Assembly (NCBI GenBank): GCA_964452935.1 | Contig: CAYVNO010000006.1 | Location: 5,574-69,573, forward strand | DNA length: 64,000 bases | Source: an uncultured Methanosarcinales archaeon | Lineage (GTDB): Archaea; Nanobdellota; Nanobdellia; Woesearchaeales; DSVV01 | Reading direction: 5' to 3' | Shown: positions 6,830 through 45,978 of the stretch, piece after piece | Layout of the letters: each line of letters starts with the position of its first letter | How positions within the stretch are numbered: the first letter of the stretch is position 1 | Position numbers and translations under genes: made by a program | The notes under the pieces: generated by a model | What the model saw: only the letters and a program-made list of their open reading frames with translations | The model's database searches: none | What the model was told of the DNA's origin: nothing

Positions 6830-8545
6830 TCAATTCGGGTGTATTAAAACTTTCAAACAAGATATCTTCTTATCTTTTATTTTGTCAAAAGCTTCTACAA
6901 TTTCTTTTAATTGATATCTATGGGTGATTAATGGATTGACATCAATCTCATTTTTTGACATTAAATTCATACATACCTTCCAATCATTCTTAAAAGGATC
7001 AGAGATATTTGAATTCCATGATGAGTAAATTTTTAACTCACTTCTAAGAATCTTTGACATTGTTCTTGGTTCAAGACACAAATCGTTTTGATGATTACCT
7101 AAAAAAAGAATCGAGCCTTCTTTTTTTATGTTATGAATATTCATATTTATCAATTCAGATGCACCACTACAATCTATCAATATATGAAATGTTCTGTTGT
7201 TTACATTGATATCAGGGGTCCATGCTTCATCAAACCCTGCCTGTTTTGCTATTATCATTTTATGTTGATTTCTATCAATTCCAGCAATCATATTCGCACC
7301 AAAATGTTTACATAACATTCCAGCAATAACACCAATTGGTCCAAGACCAAGTATCAAAACATATGCATTTGCAACATCAGTTAATTTCTTTACCCCCCTA
7401 TGAACAACTGCCAATGGTTCTAGTAAAGATGCCTGATCATAAGTAACATTATTAGGAATTGGTACTAAGTTATCTTTAGGAACTACTACTTGTTCTGCAA
7501 AGCCACCGTCACACCTTGAACCTAAGTAATTATAATTATCACAAAGATTGTACTTTTCAGACTTACAGTAATCACATTTTTTGCAAGGTATTAACGGGAA
7601 CACTGCAACCCTCTGATTCATTAAATGATCGTTATCTTGATTTGTTTTTAAAACAATCCCAGAAAACTCATGTCCTGGAACAAGATTTTTTGAATACATT
7701 CCATTTTTATAAACCCTATCAATATCAGATCCACATATGCCGCAGCTCATTACTTTTACAATGACTTCATCTTCTTTCAAAGATTTTTGTTTCTTTTTCT
7801 CTATTTCAAAATCATTTATATCTCTTAATACTGCAGCATTGTACTCTGTTTCATAACTTTTTTCTACATCAATCATCTTTCTTTCTGGAAGGTTTGATGT
7901 TATTTCCTTAAATTTATGGAGATTATTACTGAACCCATTATTATTGAATAACATTGAAGTTCCAGCAACAACAATATCAATACCACTTTCATATAATGGT
8001 TTTATGTGTTCTAACTTAACTCCTCCGTCTGATATTAATTCAACATTAAGGTTATTCTTTTTTATGTAAGAATATAGGTAATTTGTCTTTTCATATAACT
8101 CATCACAAAATTTCAATCCTGAAAAGCCAGTCTTGACATTCATTAATAAAAGGTAGTCAATGTGGGGTAAATACTTTTCAACAAATGAGGGAGGTGTTTC
8201 TATGTTCATTGCCAACCCAACCTTAACATTCTTTTTCTTTAGGTATTCAATGTTTTTTTGAATATCCTCATTTGTCTCTACATGGAAAATTATTATGTCA
8301 ATCTCACATTCTACCAATTGGTCAAAATATTTAGAAGGTTCTTGTACCATTAAATGTACATCAAAGGGTATTCTTGTCAAACGCCTACTTTCTCGAATAA
8401 CCTCTAGATTAAGGGCAAGATTATTTACAAAATTACCATCCATTATATCCATATGGAAATAATCAACACCAACTTTTACAAGTGCCATTACGTTTCTCAT
8501 TATGTGCATTGAATCAGCACACATTAATGAAGCAGCTATTTTCAT
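6830..8545 (-). CDS. Fusion protein: ribulose-phosphate 3-epimerase-like N-terminal domain plus Zn-dependent MDR dehydrogenase C-terminal domain
   Basis: N-terminus SLMCAD...DYFHMDIMDGNFVNNL is an Rpe signature. C-terminal half has CGICGSDI, GHEFSG and GLGPIG (MDR dehydrogenase). Confidence 0.7.
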   Translation of the reverse strand: MKIAASLMCADSMHIMRNVMALVKVGVDYFHMDIMDGNFVNNLALNLEVIRESRRLTRIPFDVHLMVQEPSKYFDQLVECEIDIIIFHVETNEDIQKNIEYLKKKNVKVGLAMNIETPPSFVEKYLPHIDYLLLMNVKTGFSGLKFCDELYEKTNYLYSYIKKNNLNVELISDGGVKLEHIKPLYESGIDIVVAGTSMLFNNNGFSNNLHKFKEITSNLPERKMIDVEKSYETEYNAAVLRDINDFEIEKKKQKSLKEDEVIVKVMSCGICGSDIDRVYKNGMYSKNLVPGHEFSGIVLKTNQDNDHLMNQRVAVFPLIPCKKCDYCKSEKYNLCDNYNYLGSRCDGGFAEQVVVPKDNLVPIPNNVTYDQASLLEPLAVVHRGVKKLTDVANAYVLILGLGPIGVIAGMLCKHFGANMIAGIDRNQHKMIIAKQAGFDEAWTPDINVNNRTFHILIDCSGASELINMNIHNIKKEGSILFLGNHQNDLCLEPRTMSKILRSELKIYSSWNSNISDPFKNDWKVCMNLMSKNEIDVNPLITHRYQLKEIVEAFDKIKDKKISCLKVLIHPN

Positions 8546-41467: not shown

Positions 41468-42175
41468 TCACTTCTTTAGCTCTTCTAACATTCTTTTCAC
41501 TAAACTTGCTTTTAGGTTATCACCTAAAACTTGTTCTGCAATATATTCTTGTAAATCAAATCTAGAAATAATCTTATCAGCAGCTTTTTTTACACCAACA
41601 TTTATTTTAAATTTCTTTCCAGAATAAAATAACAAAGCAAAGATATCACACGCATCTTTTAATTCTTTGTCTAATTTTTCTCTTTCAAAAAATGAAGTTA
41701 CTTTTAGGTTCAATAAAGAATCAACAGTAAAAACTGGACATCCTTCAATTTCCTCTGTTTTCATATTTTCTAATTTAGGAAACACCCAACTCCCCAACAT
41801 TTTAGTCTTTTTATCTGAGAACACATCTAAAAAAATATAAACAAGATTAAAAATAGGTTTTTGTTTGGATCTCTCGGAAGAAATTATCTTATTTTCTCCT
41901 CTGTCATAAATTAGTTCATATCTAAAACTATAAGCACTTCCTGTAAACCCCATCCCCTTAATAATATCAAAAAATTCTTGTTCATTCTTATGGTCCACAA
42001 AAACATCAATATCTCTTGATCTTAAATACTCTTTGCCAAAAGCTTTCTGATATTCATCTTTTACTTGTAAAAAAACCGCCCACCCTCCGAGAACAGCCCA
42101 CCTAAGATCTGTAATCTTTTCTTTTAATTTTTGTAGATATTCATACGATATATCTGTTTCAACAGGATCATACAT
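41468..42175 (-). CDS. AbiEii/AbiGii-like nucleotidyltransferase (type IV toxin candidate)
   Basis: LGGWAVFL ... RSRDIDVFVD resembles the GGxAL...DxD NTase core of AbiEii. 8-nt overlap with the upstream wHTH gene. Confidence 0.5.
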   Translation of the reverse strand: MYDPVETDISYEYLQKLKEKITDLRWAVLGGWAVFLQVKDEYQKAFGKEYLRSRDIDVFVDHKNEQEFFDIIKGMGFTGSAYSFRYELIYDRGENKIISSERSKQKPIFNLVYIFLDVFSDKKTKMLGSWVFPKLENMKTEEIEGCPVFTVDSLLNLKVTSFFEREKLDKELKDACDIFALLFYSGKKFKINVGVKKAADKIISRFDLQEYIAEQVLGDNLKASLVKRMLEELKK

Positions 42176-42785
42176 CTTTTTCCCTCATTATTTTCAAAAT
42201 TTGTTCAGCAGCTTCTTCTGCCCTTCCACCATAAGATAAAAGATCGGTATATAGTTGAGGTAGAGAAATTATTTTAACATCTCTTACCTCTTGACTACCA
42301 TAAAAATGATTCTCATCAACTAAATAACAAACAATATTGCCTTTTTCTGCTAACATAATTCCATTTTTTATAAATATATCCTTAATTTTTTCTTTCTCTG
42401 GAATATAAAGATGAACTTTATTTGGAGCAACATAAGGAGATATGATTTCTGTAGCAGAAAACAAGGTAAAAGCATATTCTTCCTTCCTTAGCAATTGACT
42501 TATCTTTTTAATTAAATATTGAGGTCTTTCCGGAGCCAAAAACTCCATTCTTTGATTTTCTTTAATAGAAACAGTATATGACCATGCTTTTAATAACTTT
42601 TCATAATTAACTACCTTTATTCCCCTTCTTTTTTCTAAATGACCACACGATTCTAAAGCTCTAACTATCTTGACAGTCATTCCCAACGATACTCCAGCTT
42701 TCTTAGCAAGATCTCTAACTGTTAGTTTCTCTTTCTCATTCAATAAAACTCTTATTATGTCTTGCGTTGTCTTGTTCAATATCAT
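42168..42785 (-). CDS. AbiEi-like wHTH transcriptional regulator (antitoxin candidate)
   Basis: N-terminal wHTH (TVRDLAKKAGVSLGMTVKIVRALESCGHLEKRRG). C-terminal LPQLYTDLLSYGGRAEEAAEQIL resembles the AbiEi C-terminal domain. Confidence 0.5.
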   Translation of the reverse strand: MILNKTTQDIIRVLLNEKEKLTVRDLAKKAGVSLGMTVKIVRALESCGHLEKRRGIKVVNYEKLLKAWSYTVSIKENQRMEFLAPERPQYLIKKISQLLRKEEYAFTLFSATEIISPYVAPNKVHLYIPEKEKIKDIFIKNGIMLAEKGNIVCYLVDENHFYGSQEVRDVKIISLPQLYTDLLSYGGRAEEAAEQILKIMREKDV

Positions 42786-42992: not shown

Positions 42993-43949
42993 GTGCTTAA
43001 TAAAATGAGTTTAGAAGGACAATTAACAAATGAGAGAGGAACATTAAAAGAATCATATTCTAGAGTAAAACCTGAAACAGTACAACATTCTGATGAAATA
43101 CAAACAGATAGACTGACTGATGAAGGATTAAGAAATGTATGGTTTTGGACAGCAGATTTTCCAATGTACAGAGTTGAAGATGATAAAGGGAATGCTGTTC
43201 AAGGCAGAGCTGTTGAAGATGGTGAAGCAGTATTATATTTAGCAAGAAGAGAGCATAATTTAGTTTTTCAAAACATAGAAGAAGCTACAGATCAATTAAT
43301 AAGAACTAATAATTATGTTGTAGAAAATCAAGAGGATATTGAATCTATGGTAAATGCAGAATCTACTGTAAGGATAGTGCTTTCAAACTTAGGGTTGAAA
43401 AGGCACAATGATGAATTTTCTTATATTGAATTAAACACTAAAACATTAGCAGAAGGAAGAGAAGCTGTCTTAGAACAGTATGGAGAAGATGTTACTGCTT
43501 TTGTTGACAGGGTTCATGGAGATGCTGGTTATGAAAAAGAAGGCATTGGTGATTTGTTGGCAGAGAAAGGAAGAAATATTACAAGGATTTATGTTTTAAA
43601 TCCAGAATATGTTAAAGGTAAACGTGCAATTAGGGAAGGTAAATCTCTTGCGCGGGCTTGTAGGCTCGTTGACTTTGACTACTATTCCAATTTCTACGCC
43701 GGTGTCCGTAATGTTGACGAGTCCGACTATGCCCTGCGTGGGGTACCAGTTATCGCCGAAGGCGACGCACAAAATTTAGAACATAGTGCACAAGTAGCTT
43801 CAAAAGAAGTAACAGCAAAATACACTCCTGAAGGTGTATTAAGTTACATGAGTGCACATAAGCAAGAACTTGCAGATGCAATGCAACCATCTAATAACAT
43901 AGATCTTGCAGAAGTTCAACTTATGTATGATACTAAACAAAACCAATAA
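42993..43949 (+). CDS. DGR target (variable) protein, 318 aa, no signal peptide recognised
   Basis: Contains the VR at codons 219-250 (LARACRLVDFDYYSNFYAGVRNVDESDYALRG). N-terminal two thirds acidic, with no known motif. Confidence 0.8.
   Translation: MLNKMSLEGQLTNERGTLKESYSRVKPETVQHSDEIQTDRLTDEGLRNVWFWTADFPMYRVEDDKGNAVQGRAVEDGEAVLYLARREHNLVFQNIEEATDQLIRTNNYVVENQEDIESMVNAESTVRIVLSNLGLKRHNDEFSYIELNTKTLAEGREAVLEQYGEDVTAFVDRVHGDAGYEKEGIGDLLAEKGRNITRIYVLNPEYVKGKRAIREGKSLARACRLVDFDYYSNFYAGVRNVDESDYALRGVPVIAEGDAQNLEHSAQVASKEVTAKYTPEGVLSYMSAHKQELADAMQPSNNIDLAEVQLMYDTKQNQ
43648..43741 (+). repeat. DGR variable region (VR)
   Basis: Aligns without gaps to 44196..44289. 13 mismatches, 12 of them at positions where the TR has A. 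Confidence 0.85.
43753..43765 (+). promoter_or_regulatory. GC-rich hairpin 11 nt downstream of the VR (candidate DGR target-recognition element)
   Basis: TCGCC-GAA-GGCGA, a perfect 5-bp GC-rich stem with a 3-nt loop in an AT-rich genome. Confidence 0.4.
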
Positions 43950-44195
43950 TTTTATTAATTTCTAATTTTATTTTTTCTTTTGTCTCAGTATGACTCTACT
44001 TGTATAAGTGGAGTAGTGCTGGACTACATGCTCTTTTGCTATGGCAAACGATATTGTTTGTTATAAAATACAGCTGTGACACATGAACTGAGGTTTATAT
44101 GGTTGAAACAGCAGTGCAAGATACATGAAAACTTATTTAGTTTTTCATGTCCTAAAAATCCATTTGGGTTTTTATGACAGCAAAAGAGCTACTAG

Positions 44196-44289
44196 TTGCG
44201 CGGGCTTGTAGGCTCAATGACTTTGACAACAATTCCAATTTCAACGCCAATGACCATAATGTTGACAATTCCAACAATGCCCTGCGTGG
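44196..44289 (+). repeat. DGR template repeat (TR)
   Basis: Contains 10 AAY codons in the VR reading frame. Lies 34 nt upstream of the probable RT start codon. Confidence 0.85.
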
Positions 44290-44323
44290 AATAGCCCACA
44301 CTTATGCTGAGACAATTATTAAA

Positions 44324-45434
44324 ATGCGCAGAGACTTATGGAAAGAATTTACAAGCTATGACAACCTCAAACTTGCGTACCAAAAAGCAAGGAAACATAA
44401 AACAACTAAAGATTATGTTATTGATTTTGAGAAAAATCTTAAAACTAATCTTCTCCTGCTTCGTTCTGAACTTTTACTACATTCTTATAGACCAAAACCC
44501 TTAGTAAATTTTATCATCAGAGACCCAAAGACTAGAAAAATAAGCAAATCTGATTTTAGGGACAGAGTTATACATCATGCTTTATGCAACATTATAGAAC
44601 CAATCTTTGAAAAAGGTTTTATCCATGACTCTTATGCTAATCGAATAAATAAAGGCACTCTAAAAGCAATTGAAAGATTTGATTATTTCAAAAGAAAAGC
44701 AACAAAGAATAACACAATAAAAGCTTACGTCTTCAAAGCAGACATAAAAAAATACTTTGAAAACATAAACCATAAAATCTTGTTAAATATAATCAAGAGA
44801 AAAATAAGAGATAAAAAAGTTTTATGGCTAATAAGACTGATACTTAGTCACGCAGGGGGGGGGCGAACAGAAGAATGGAATGCCTTTGGGCAATCTCACG
44901 TCCCAATTCTTTGCCAATGTTTATCTTAATGAACTTGATTATTTTGTAAAACATAAACTAAAAATAAAATATTACATTAGATATGTTGATGATTTTGTAA
45001 TTATTCATAGATCAAAAGAGAAAATTGAAGAATACAATAACAAAATAAATCACTTCCTAACAAATAGATTATCAATCCAACTACATCCTGATAAATCTAA
45101 GATCATCCAAATGAATAAGGGAATAAACTTTCTAGGATTGAAAATCCTTCAATATCATAAGATCATACAAAAGAAAAACAGAAGACAATTCACCAATAAA
45201 TTAAACAATTATGTCTCAGAATACAAGGAAAACAATATGAACTATGATAAAATCTATGATTTTCTTGAAGGATGGTTGGCTTACACTAAACACACAAATT
45301 CATACAAACTAAGGAATAAAATTACTAGTAAGATAGAAAAAACATTTCACAATGAGATATCAACAAAAGAAATAAATAGAATAATAAAACTATCTACAGA
45401 CTCAACGAAGAATAATACAAATGACTCATTATAA
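44324..45434 (+). CDS. DGR-type reverse transcriptase, interrupted by a +1 frameshift in a G9 homopolymer (44855..44863)
   Basis: Track ORFs 44174..44929 and 44880..45434 are in different frames. The first carries RT motifs 1-3 (RKISKSDFRDRVIHHAL). The second carries motif 4 PLGNLTSQFFANVYL (the DGR-typical (I/L)GxxxSQ) and motif 5 YIRYVDDF. The probable start is ATG 44324; upstream codons are just the open TR. Confidence 0.8.
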
Positions 45435-45978
45435 AATTATGTTGGAATAACGCCCACATTTTATATCTCTCCATCATATCAGGATCAATATAATTTGCTT
45501 CACAATGCATTATCTGATTCATCTTTGTCGCTCTTATTATCTCTGTAACCTCTTTAAATGTTGCTGTCTGTTGATTCTCTCTTGCCTCAACCGGTCCTCT
45601 ATCTTCCTCTCCCCAAGATAAACTTGAATAATCATAATCAACTGAACCATACACATTCTCTCTCAAATACTCTGATAAGAATCTCTGATAAGCTTGTAAC
45701 TGTTTAGCATATTGCTCAATATGGAATCTCTCAAAACCATCCATCTTAACAGTGATGCCCAAGACACCGTCAAGAAATTTATCATTTTTCTTTCCTTGAA
45801 TCTCTTTATCATCATCTATTGCAGAAAAAGCATCCTTCTTTTTCTTTATTTTTGCTCTCTCCTCTAAATCCTTCTCAGATTTTCTCTGCAAGGCTTTAAG
45901 AAATAACTCTTCTAACTCACTAAGATCTGGCTTTTTCTCTTTTTTCTTCAATCTTTTAACAAGATCAACTTTTCCCAT
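45394..45978 (-). CDS. Hypothetical protein with a Lys/Glu-rich N-terminus
   Basis: ORF track only. Its 3' end overlaps the RT 3' end by 41 nt (convergent). Confidence 0.4.
   Translation of the reverse strand: MGKVDLVKRLKKKEKKPDLSELEELFLKALQRKSEKDLEERAKIKKKKDAFSAIDDDKEIQGKKNDKFLDGVLGITVKMDGFERFHIEQYAKQLQAYQRFLSEYLRENVYGSVDYDYSSLSWGEEDRGPVEARENQQTATFKEVTEIIRATKMNQIMHCEANYIDPDMMERYKMWALFQHNFIMSHLYYSSLSL

Follow-up and report, generated by a model that had tools for sequence, protein, structure and literature searches.

A recently active diversity-generating retroelement of a probable DPANN archaeon, with a predicted AvpA-like target, an RT-16 leader and a reverse transcriptase gene split by a poly-G tract

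The 64-kb stretch of contig CAYVNO010000006.1 analysed in this study (the window) carries a diversity-generating retroelement (DGR), which consists of a target gene with an internal variable repeat (VR), a structured RNA of the Rfam family RT-16, a template repeat (TR) and a gene for reverse transcriptase (RT). We consider it highly probable that this is a chromosomal DGR of a DPANN archaeon, laid out in that order and without an accessory gene. The element is genuine and was recently active, because two further VR alleles occur on the same backbone and 37 of 40 mismatches lie on TR adenines. It is of the Nanoarchaeota type described in 2015–2016, with a target that is predicted to be AvpA-like, and only the splitting of its RT gene by a poly-G tract may be new. 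As a DGR, it is one more well-documented natural example, with three VR alleles in public metagenomes; further work would best be directed at the poly-G tract first of all, and also at the RT-16 assignment and at a helix that closes the template RNA.

The VR and the TR form a 94-nt direct repeat, 86% identical and sharp at both ends, which the repeat finder returned as the largest direct repeat near the element. In the window, 13 of the 94 positions are mismatched, and 12 of these lie on TR adenines (six A to G and six A to T); the sole non-adenine mismatch is a T-to-G change at 44269 in the TR and 43721 in the VR. Given 26 adenines among the 94 TR bases, the probability that at least 12 of 13 mismatches fall on adenine is 2e-7. 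Sixteen TR codons hold an adenine, a stop codon cannot be reached from them, and approximately 1.8e15 protein variants are possible. An earlier reading of the window, made from the letters alone (the sequence-only reading), had claimed the repeat at both positions, the adenine-specific divergence, the 10 AAY codons of the TR and a VR that is internal and followed by 68 more residues (open reading frame (ORF) 42993-43949). All of this was recovered here, and the DGR call that was built on it was correct and is now also backed by population evidence of activity. That reading had seen no second VR for this TR, and a scan of the whole 64-kb window with the TR, in which adenine was treated as a wildcard, found none either.

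The population test used assembled consensus contigs from other samples, not reads. The contigs L001, L003 and L055 aligned to the window over 4301, 1681 and 6555 nt, respectively, without any difference outside the VR, and L002 aligned over 3503 nt with one. Besides the sample of the window, the backbone is present in ENA ERZ23499127, ERZ23499185, ERZ23499079 and ERZ23499344 and in JGI 3300008625 and 3300009375. The VRs of the public contigs lie 12–17 positions apart from the window VR and represent two further alleles, three including that of the window, and the TR was identical in all contigs that cover it. Compared with the TR, the three alleles have 13, 15 and 12 mismatches; those on adenines comprise 16 changes of A to G, 21 of A to T and none of A to C, and 21 of the 26 TR adenines are altered in at least one allele. 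The natural variation at A-templated positions that the sequence-only reading proposed to look for was found in this way, in assemblies with near-identical backbones. The contigs also share breakpoints. L002 ends at window position 44202, at the start of the TR, and L001 and L003 both end at 44614 within the RT gene, which probably reflects the VR/TR repeat together with strain heterogeneity.

A metagenome scan with the target-family alignment gave 51 loci. In 30 of these, the DNA downstream of the target homologue is 1.8 kb or longer, and an RT lies in 15 of the 30 and not in the other 15. In total, 17 TR/VR pairs were analysed, that of the window and 16 in related loci. All 17 show the order of target with VR, approximately 450 nt, TR, approximately 40 nt and RT, and their mismatches are almost only of the A type. 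Their VRs end in a common sequence that resembles the initiation of mutagenic homing (IMH) sequence. In the window, the VR end reads ...GCGTGGGGTACC and the TR end reads ...GCGTGGAATAGC, with TGGGGT at 43739-43744 and TGGAAT at 44287-44292. The TGGGGT/TGGAAT ends and a GC-rich hairpin with a GRA triloop were present in all 17 cassettes, and 15 of the hairpins had a GAA loop. In a loop-anchored alignment of the hairpin stem, four of six pairs showed compensatory changes, and none of 500 shuffles reached the observed covariation. In some cassettes, a single TR goes with two VRs that lie in a tandem pair of target genes, as in L005 (2021-2115 and 2885-2978) and L009 (5731-5826 and 6598-6692); two VRs per TR were also seen in several GTDB loci (L075, L081, L099, L102, L109 and L113).

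The RT is present in the window as two ORFs (44174-44929 and 44880-45434) that are split by a run of nine G, and deleting one G restores a continuous protein. Its motifs MPLGNLTSQ and YVDD are both present, so that the DGR-typical motif 4 and the YVDD of the sequence-only reading were found as claimed. The RT matches Pfam RVT_1 (E 1.7e-23). Its best NCBIfam model is the group II intron RT/maturase TIGR04416, at 179.6 bits and under the cut-off of 300, and the retron RT model gave 62 bits, under its cut-off of 235. Among solved structures, the best match was 8ub7 chain A (163 bits, E 9e-47), whereas group II intron RTs reached at most 86 bits. This chain is bRT, the RT of the Bordetella phage DGR, because the residue numbers in the alignment (I181, G182, Q187, D215 and D216) equal those given for bRT in bioRxiv 10.1101/2023.10.23.563531, and LGNLTSQ of the window RT aligns with IGSLTSQ (I181-Q187) of bRT. 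More than 7000 database proteins are homologous at E < 1e-40, and the nearest intact ones with an organism name (60–69% identity) come from metagenome-assembled genomes (MAGs) of Nanoarchaeota or Woesearchaeota. We believe from these comparisons that the RT belongs with DGR RTs and appears closest to that of the Bordetella phage; the DGR affinity expected by the earlier reading stood, in a placement among clades that was made by match scores.

Two side observations concern the RT gene. The TR is open in the RT frame (44174-44929), and gene callers predict a 251-aa protein with a TR-encoded N-terminus; many RT homologues of 400–448 aa probably include their TR likewise. In L043 (approximately 7513-7597), and likewise in L048, an AT-rich insertion of approximately 85 nt separates HHALCNI from IGPLFEK in a related RT; it has two inverted repeats and resembles either a miniature mobile element or a small insert of an intron-like kind.

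The spacer between target and TR is filled by the RT-16 RNA, a structured leader that ends on the first two TR bases. Of 15 related cassettes, 13 also have RT-16, in each case after the target stop and before the TR, with a 3' end that reaches over the first few TR bases. In the report of Weinberg et al. 2017 (PMC5737381), only RT-10 was linked to a DGR and the other RT motifs were unassigned. In this study, the window and 13 related loci exceed the gathering threshold over the full model, and RT-16 now has an exact position in archaeal DGRs, after the target gene and before the TR. This gives the orphan motif a definite place in archaeal DGRs without avd, where it serves the template RNA as a structured 5' leader. 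RNAalifold, run on 11 loci with no structure imposed, predicted a closing helix (GTCTCAG/CTGAGAC) around RT-16 and the TR, in which four of seven pairs have compensatory changes, together with covarying inner RT-16 helices; overall, 21 of 49 predicted pairs showed a compensatory change. A hand-anchored count in nine loci gave 87% paired cells and four compensatory pairs in the closing helix, which is weaker evidence than the RNAalifold run, as this subset was picked on the pairing itself. The closing helix and the first hairpin of RT-16 overlap in their 5' strands, and the two may be alternative pairings. The helix is like the "cPRT Stop" of the Bordetella phage ribonucleoprotein, in which a duplex joins sequences upstream and downstream of the TR, and duplexes of this type have been predicted in many DGRs, Nanoarchaeota among them (bioRxiv 10.1101/2023.10.23.563531). 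The leader and the closing helix together make a defined RNA for in vitro tests.

The target had no Pfam, NCBIfam or PADLOC match. It has no hydrophobic segment (the maximum 19-residue Kyte-Doolittle mean is 0.57), which supports the earlier claim that it lacks a signal peptide and a membrane segment. A word-indexed search gave 31 close homologues, the named ones from Nanoarchaeota or Woesearchaeota. An exhaustive profile search extended the family to 807 cluster representatives at E <= 1e-3, a sizeable and unannotated family that is not rare. The family alignment shows approximately 215 conserved residues on the N-terminal side, then the scaffold AIARAxxLxxFxxxSxFxAxxRxVxxxxxxLRGV, whose x positions are freely variable, and then a poorly conserved tail. 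The AlphaFold (AF2) model built on this alignment had a mean pLDDT (predicted local distance difference test score) of 87.6 and values above 95 over the VR strands; confidence was low only in the helical C-terminal tail (residues ~256–318). Foldseek against the PDB returned one significant match for the model, AvpA (5ioo_A, probability 1.0, E 2e-5), and no match was found in a viral structure library. AvpA has a C-type-lectin fold, and the earlier view that the VR scaffold is not of the C-type-lectin kind is contradicted by this match. No sequence-level link was found between the target and AvpA, Mtd or TvpA. A link to AvpA by sequence was tried and dropped, as the family profiles gave only spurious matches to a designed protein. 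The AvpA motifs GxxVVVYAH and HPxxxPFxG were unrecognisable in the target, apart from a loose GEAVLYLARR, and only LRGV resembles RFxGV. We believe that the target is predicted to have an AvpA-like C-type-lectin fold, with a relation at the level of the fold only.

The comparison with AvpA can be extended to the VR. In AvpA, the VR lies near but not at the C-terminus and is followed by 46 residues, which were unresolved in the crystal and predicted in silico as two helices; there are 12 variable residues, 10 of them from AAY codons, the hairpin lies within the coding sequence, and the IMH codes for the final strand (Handa et al. 2016, PMC5006420). Similarly, the window target has a short VR (approximately 27–32 residues in both) with a conserved aromatic residue within it, 10 AAY codons, a last strand encoded by the IMH (LRGV, as against RFxGV) and a flexible helical tail after the VR, of 68 residues. 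It differs from AvpA in having 16 variable codons and in its sequence, which shows approximately 10% identity in the structural alignment, escapes profile detection and lacks the two AvpA motifs.

How these parts may work together is inferred here from the analogous Bordetella phage system, and this applies to the RNA boundaries, the priming, the steps of homing, the ligand and the role in the cell. An RNA spanning the RT-16 leader and the TR would be made and would be closed off by the helix of the sequences that flank RT-16 plus TR. The RT would copy this RNA and misincorporate opposite template adenines, and the resulting cDNA would replace the VR in the target gene, with the TGGGGT end of the IMH and the downstream GAA-loop hairpin directing the replacement. 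Up to 16 codons could in this way be rewritten on the presumed ligand-binding face of a protein with an AvpA-like C-type-lectin fold and without a signal peptide or membrane segment. The element is like the DGR of Bordetella phage BPP-1 (mtd-avd-TR-brt) in its A-specific transfer from TR to VR, its [ILV]GxxxSQ RT, its IMH/IMH* ends and its hairpin downstream of the VR. Unlike BPP-1, it has no Avd, its large structured RNA (RT-16) lies 5' of the TR and not in a 140-nt spacer 3' of it, the RT start follows the TR after only approximately 35 nt, the triloop hairpin lies in coding sequence, the VR is internal, and the target is not a phage tail protein.

The run of nine G (G9) that splits the RT gene is the sole run of G or C of at least seven in the 64-kb window, where 0.0008 such runs are expected from composition. 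The same G9 was found in L055 and L056, two independent assemblies of the same strain, and it is therefore not a one-off assembly error. Both RT halves are otherwise intact in the window. Among 16 related metagenome RTs, five carry a G7–G9 run at the homologous spot, and all five are split there. The GTDB species genomes were scanned for G6 or longer, followed by 8–30 nt and then by the motif-4 codons, which gave 94 stretches, nearly all in DPANN MAGs, with tracts of G6–G14 in approximately 90 DPANN species genomes. Frames were counted over unique loci with both RT halves intact, in the GTDB and metagenome sets combined; 23 were in frame and 52 out of frame. Tracts of at least eight G were spread over the three frames as 15, 24 and 25 loci, which fits a uniform spread (chi-square p = 0.24), and seven of the eight G6 tracts were in frame. 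Additional RT disruptions were rare and no commoner out of frame (five among out-of-frame and two among in-frame loci). An A-biased TR/VR pair was seen upstream of the RT in 34 of 43 out-of-frame loci and in 14 of 17 in-frame ones. CGA directly follows the run in 80 of 96 cases, irrespective of the frame relative to the downstream ORF. Among intact close RT homologues, 19 of 117 have GG to GGGG at the tract loop. No tract-length difference was found between near-identical loci in any of the four pairs compared.

Because the gene is out of frame at G9 in all three assemblies that cover the tract, the RT must come from occasional changes of tract length or from slippage during transcription or translation. 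We take the tract to be selected and functional. Replication slippage, and with it phase variation, is a good possibility that still falls short of being probable; slippage during transcription or translation is possible, if somewhat less so; and a sequencing or assembly artefact is improbable, the remainder being left to other explanations. The constancy of CGA in all frames points to conservation or a signal at the nucleotide level, so slippage during transcription or translation stays open. A programmed +1 frameshift was also considered, as the first five poly-G RTs (the window, L016, L034, L042 and L051, with tracts of 7, 8 and 9 G) all needed +1, and it was dropped when 79 complete GTDB cases were spread about equally over the three frames (24, 28 and 27).

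The poly-G/C tracts of Neisseria and Campylobacter are bacterial homopolymer contingency loci. As in a contingency gene, the tract of the window RT lies within an ORF, its length varies among relatives, and it puts the gene in or out of frame. The likeness includes a long G run in an ORF of an AT-rich genome, a length that differs by lineage (6–14), all three frames populated and flanking coding sequence that is intact. In contrast to the bacterial loci, the host is archaeal, switching would affect the mutator (RT) of a system for targeted hypermutation, near-identical strains show no length variation, and CGA is kept in all frames. In this study, we tentatively propose that targeted hypermutation may have a built-in control in the tract: replication slippage would make it a stochastic on/off switch, or slippage in expression would make it a throttle on RT output. 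If true, no regulator of DGR activity encoded inside the RT gene itself would have been described before it, and DPANN archaea would have in it a clear locus of the contingency or recoding type. A literature search for DGRs together with homopolymers, phase variation or frameshifts found nothing relevant, with the DPANN DGR survey of Paul et al. 2017 outside its coverage. It has been speculated that DGR hypermutation is suppressed under stable conditions (PMC8867640). How cells restrain DGRs is an open question, and a conserved frame-breaking poly-G tract offers a testable answer.

Several points weigh against the interpretation of a working DPANN DGR with an AvpA-like target. The RT ORF is frameshifted (+1) in the window, L055 and L056, and as written none of them encodes a full-length RT. 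The alleles come from assembled consensus, so the order of diversification and frameshift is not fixed. Three of the 40 VR/TR mismatches are not on adenines; these (VR positions 43679, 43721 and 43730, in the window and L001 alleles) are all changes to G, each immediately 3' of a TR adenine, and DGRs of the CPR (candidate phyla radiation)/DPANN set often show several non-A changes (Wu et al. 2018, PMC5758913). Neither an Avd-like ORF nor an Avd-like Pfam match was found within approximately 5 kb of the cassette. The geometry of the AvpA match is modest, with a template modelling (TM) score of 0.40 by query length and 0.56 by AvpA length, a root-mean-square deviation of 6.9 Å and 10% identity, and profiles of 32 and 70 target-family members did not reach 5ioo at E <= 10. 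The assignment of the host to DPANN archaea of the Nanoarchaeota/Woesearchaeota type is suggested by the names of homologues and not by a marker gene of the window.

The first of these points would fit a dead DGR relic, in which the G9 frameshift has made the RT a pseudogene and the VR differences are frozen remnants or the result of strain recombination. Near-identical strain pairs also keep their tract length, and switching was not seen directly. We nevertheless consider a relic quite unlikely. The three VR alleles lie 12–17 positions apart, while flanks of 1.7–6.5 kb show zero or one change. Both RT halves are open and conserved here, the 52 unique out-of-frame RT loci keep both of theirs with hardly any further damage, and diversified TR/VR pairs accompany out-of-frame as well as in-frame RTs in the numbers given above.

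A new kind of DGR, which would work independently of Avd and have an internal VR in a cytoplasmic target outside the C-type-lectin fold, is more doubtful still. The target without family matches, without a sequence link to AvpA, Mtd or TvpA and without a signal peptide or membrane segment would agree with it, as would the failure to find avd. However, AvpA was the only significant match of the fold search, and the target family has hundreds of members in DPANN metagenomes. The sequence-only reading had regarded the internal VR, the lack of a signal peptide and the lack of avd as unusual. The first two, together with the in-gene GRA hairpin and the TGGGGT/TGGAAT ends, turned out to be published hallmarks of Nanoarchaeota DGRs (PMC4372165, PMC5006420), and the absence of avd is no oddity, as DGRs without an accessory gene (Architecture A, the TR-RT core) make up 29% of those surveyed (Wu et al. 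2018, PMC5758913); Avd is frequent without being universal, with 74% of surveyed DGRs having it. For example, the DUSEL4 Nanoarchaeota DGRs have TGGGGT in IMH, TGGAAT in IMH* and GRA-triloop hairpins inside the target gene (Paul et al. 2015, Nat Commun 6:6585, PMC4372165). The window element shares with them these ends, the GC-rich GRA-loop hairpin within the gene, an orphan target whose VR is internal and an RT that belongs to the archaeal DGR group, and genomes of its relatives frequently hold several DGRs or several targets (L005, L009 and some GTDB loci, with two VRs per TR). Unlike the DUSEL4 DGRs, the window target is of a different sequence family, the spacer holds RT-16 and not an Avd-sized ORF, and the RT has the frame-breaking G9. 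The last alternative, that there is no DGR and that an assembly duplication or gene-conversion repeat lies beside a group II intron or retron RT, is already refuted, since the sub-threshold group II NCBIfam model that would favour it is set against a bRT match far above the group II matches, an A-specific mismatch pattern (P = 2e-7), the same arrangement in independent assemblies and dozens of related loci, and an Rfam scan of the window that found no group II intron or retron RNA.

The coordinates of all features are collected in Table 1.

Table 1. Features of the retroelement, numbered by position in the 64-kb window.
Feature	Position	Strand	Details
Target (variable protein) gene	43005..43949	+	ATG 43005 used by gene callers (314 aa); longest ORF from GTG 42993 (318 aa)
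VR	43648..43741	+	Codons 219-250 of longest ORF (start 42993); repeat finder
IMH-like GC-rich VR 3' end, GCCCTGCGTGGGGT	43731..43744	+	Holds TGGGGT; encodes nearly invariant LRGV strand
Hairpin/cruciform TCGCC-GAA-GGCGA	43753..43765	+	5-bp GC stem, GRA triloop; 12 nt 3' of VR, within target ORF
Predicted closing helix, 5' strand, TTGTCTCAGTATGA	43980..43993	+	Core GTCTCAG 43982-43988
RT-16 RNA (Rfam RF03019)	43985..44197	+	67.5 bits against gathering score of 50; model positions 1-158
TR	44196..44289	+	26 adenines, 10 AAY codons
IMH*-like TR end, GCCCTGCGTGGAAT	44279..44292	+	TGGAAT signature
Predicted closing helix, 3' strand, TTATGCTGAGACAA	44302..44315	+	Core CTGAGAC 44307-44313; 13 nt after TR, 9 nt before RT start codon
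DGR RT	44324..45434	+	From ATG 44324; one frame up to G tract, +1 frame after; 369 aa once one G is removed
G9 homopolymer	44855..44863	+	Just 5' of RT motif 4; splits RT
Peptide across G-tract junction of full-length RT, ...SHAGGGEQKNGMPLGN...			

No ORF of at least 40 aa was found on the plus strand between the target stop and the TR, and the earlier observation that no avd-sized ORF lies there holds at this threshold. Candidates for an accessory gene were a 194-aa acidic ORF (minus strand, 45394-45978), a 469-aa ORF and an AbiEi-like and nucleotidyltransferase-like pair. All of them were rejected, as none bears an Avd signature or is conserved next to the related cassettes.

Among the RT-less target loci are L010, L015, L017, L018, L020, L026, L027, L035 and L050. 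Their target homologues could be targets served in trans or undiversified paralogues, and some AvpA homologues likewise lie outside DGRs (PMC5006420).

The window is chromosomal. Its gene content includes sugar-nucleotide and polysaccharide genes, HerA, a MiaB-like radical-SAM (S-adenosylmethionine) enzyme, an S-adenosylhomocysteine hydrolase and an Lrp/AsnC regulator. The named homologues of the target and the RT all come from MAGs of Nanoarchaeota, Woesearchaeota or Pacearchaeota. One related locus carries an archaeal 16S gene; the window itself holds no rRNA, as the Rfam scan also showed, and no tRNA. Directly upstream of the target, on the minus strand (41468-42785), lie a gene with an AbiEi_2-like helix-turn-helix (42168-42785) and an overlapping 235-aa nucleotidyltransferase-like ORF (41468-42175), which look like a toxin–antitoxin pair of the AbiE type. 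The immediate neighbours of the cassette, this pair included, are not conserved next to related DGR cassettes.

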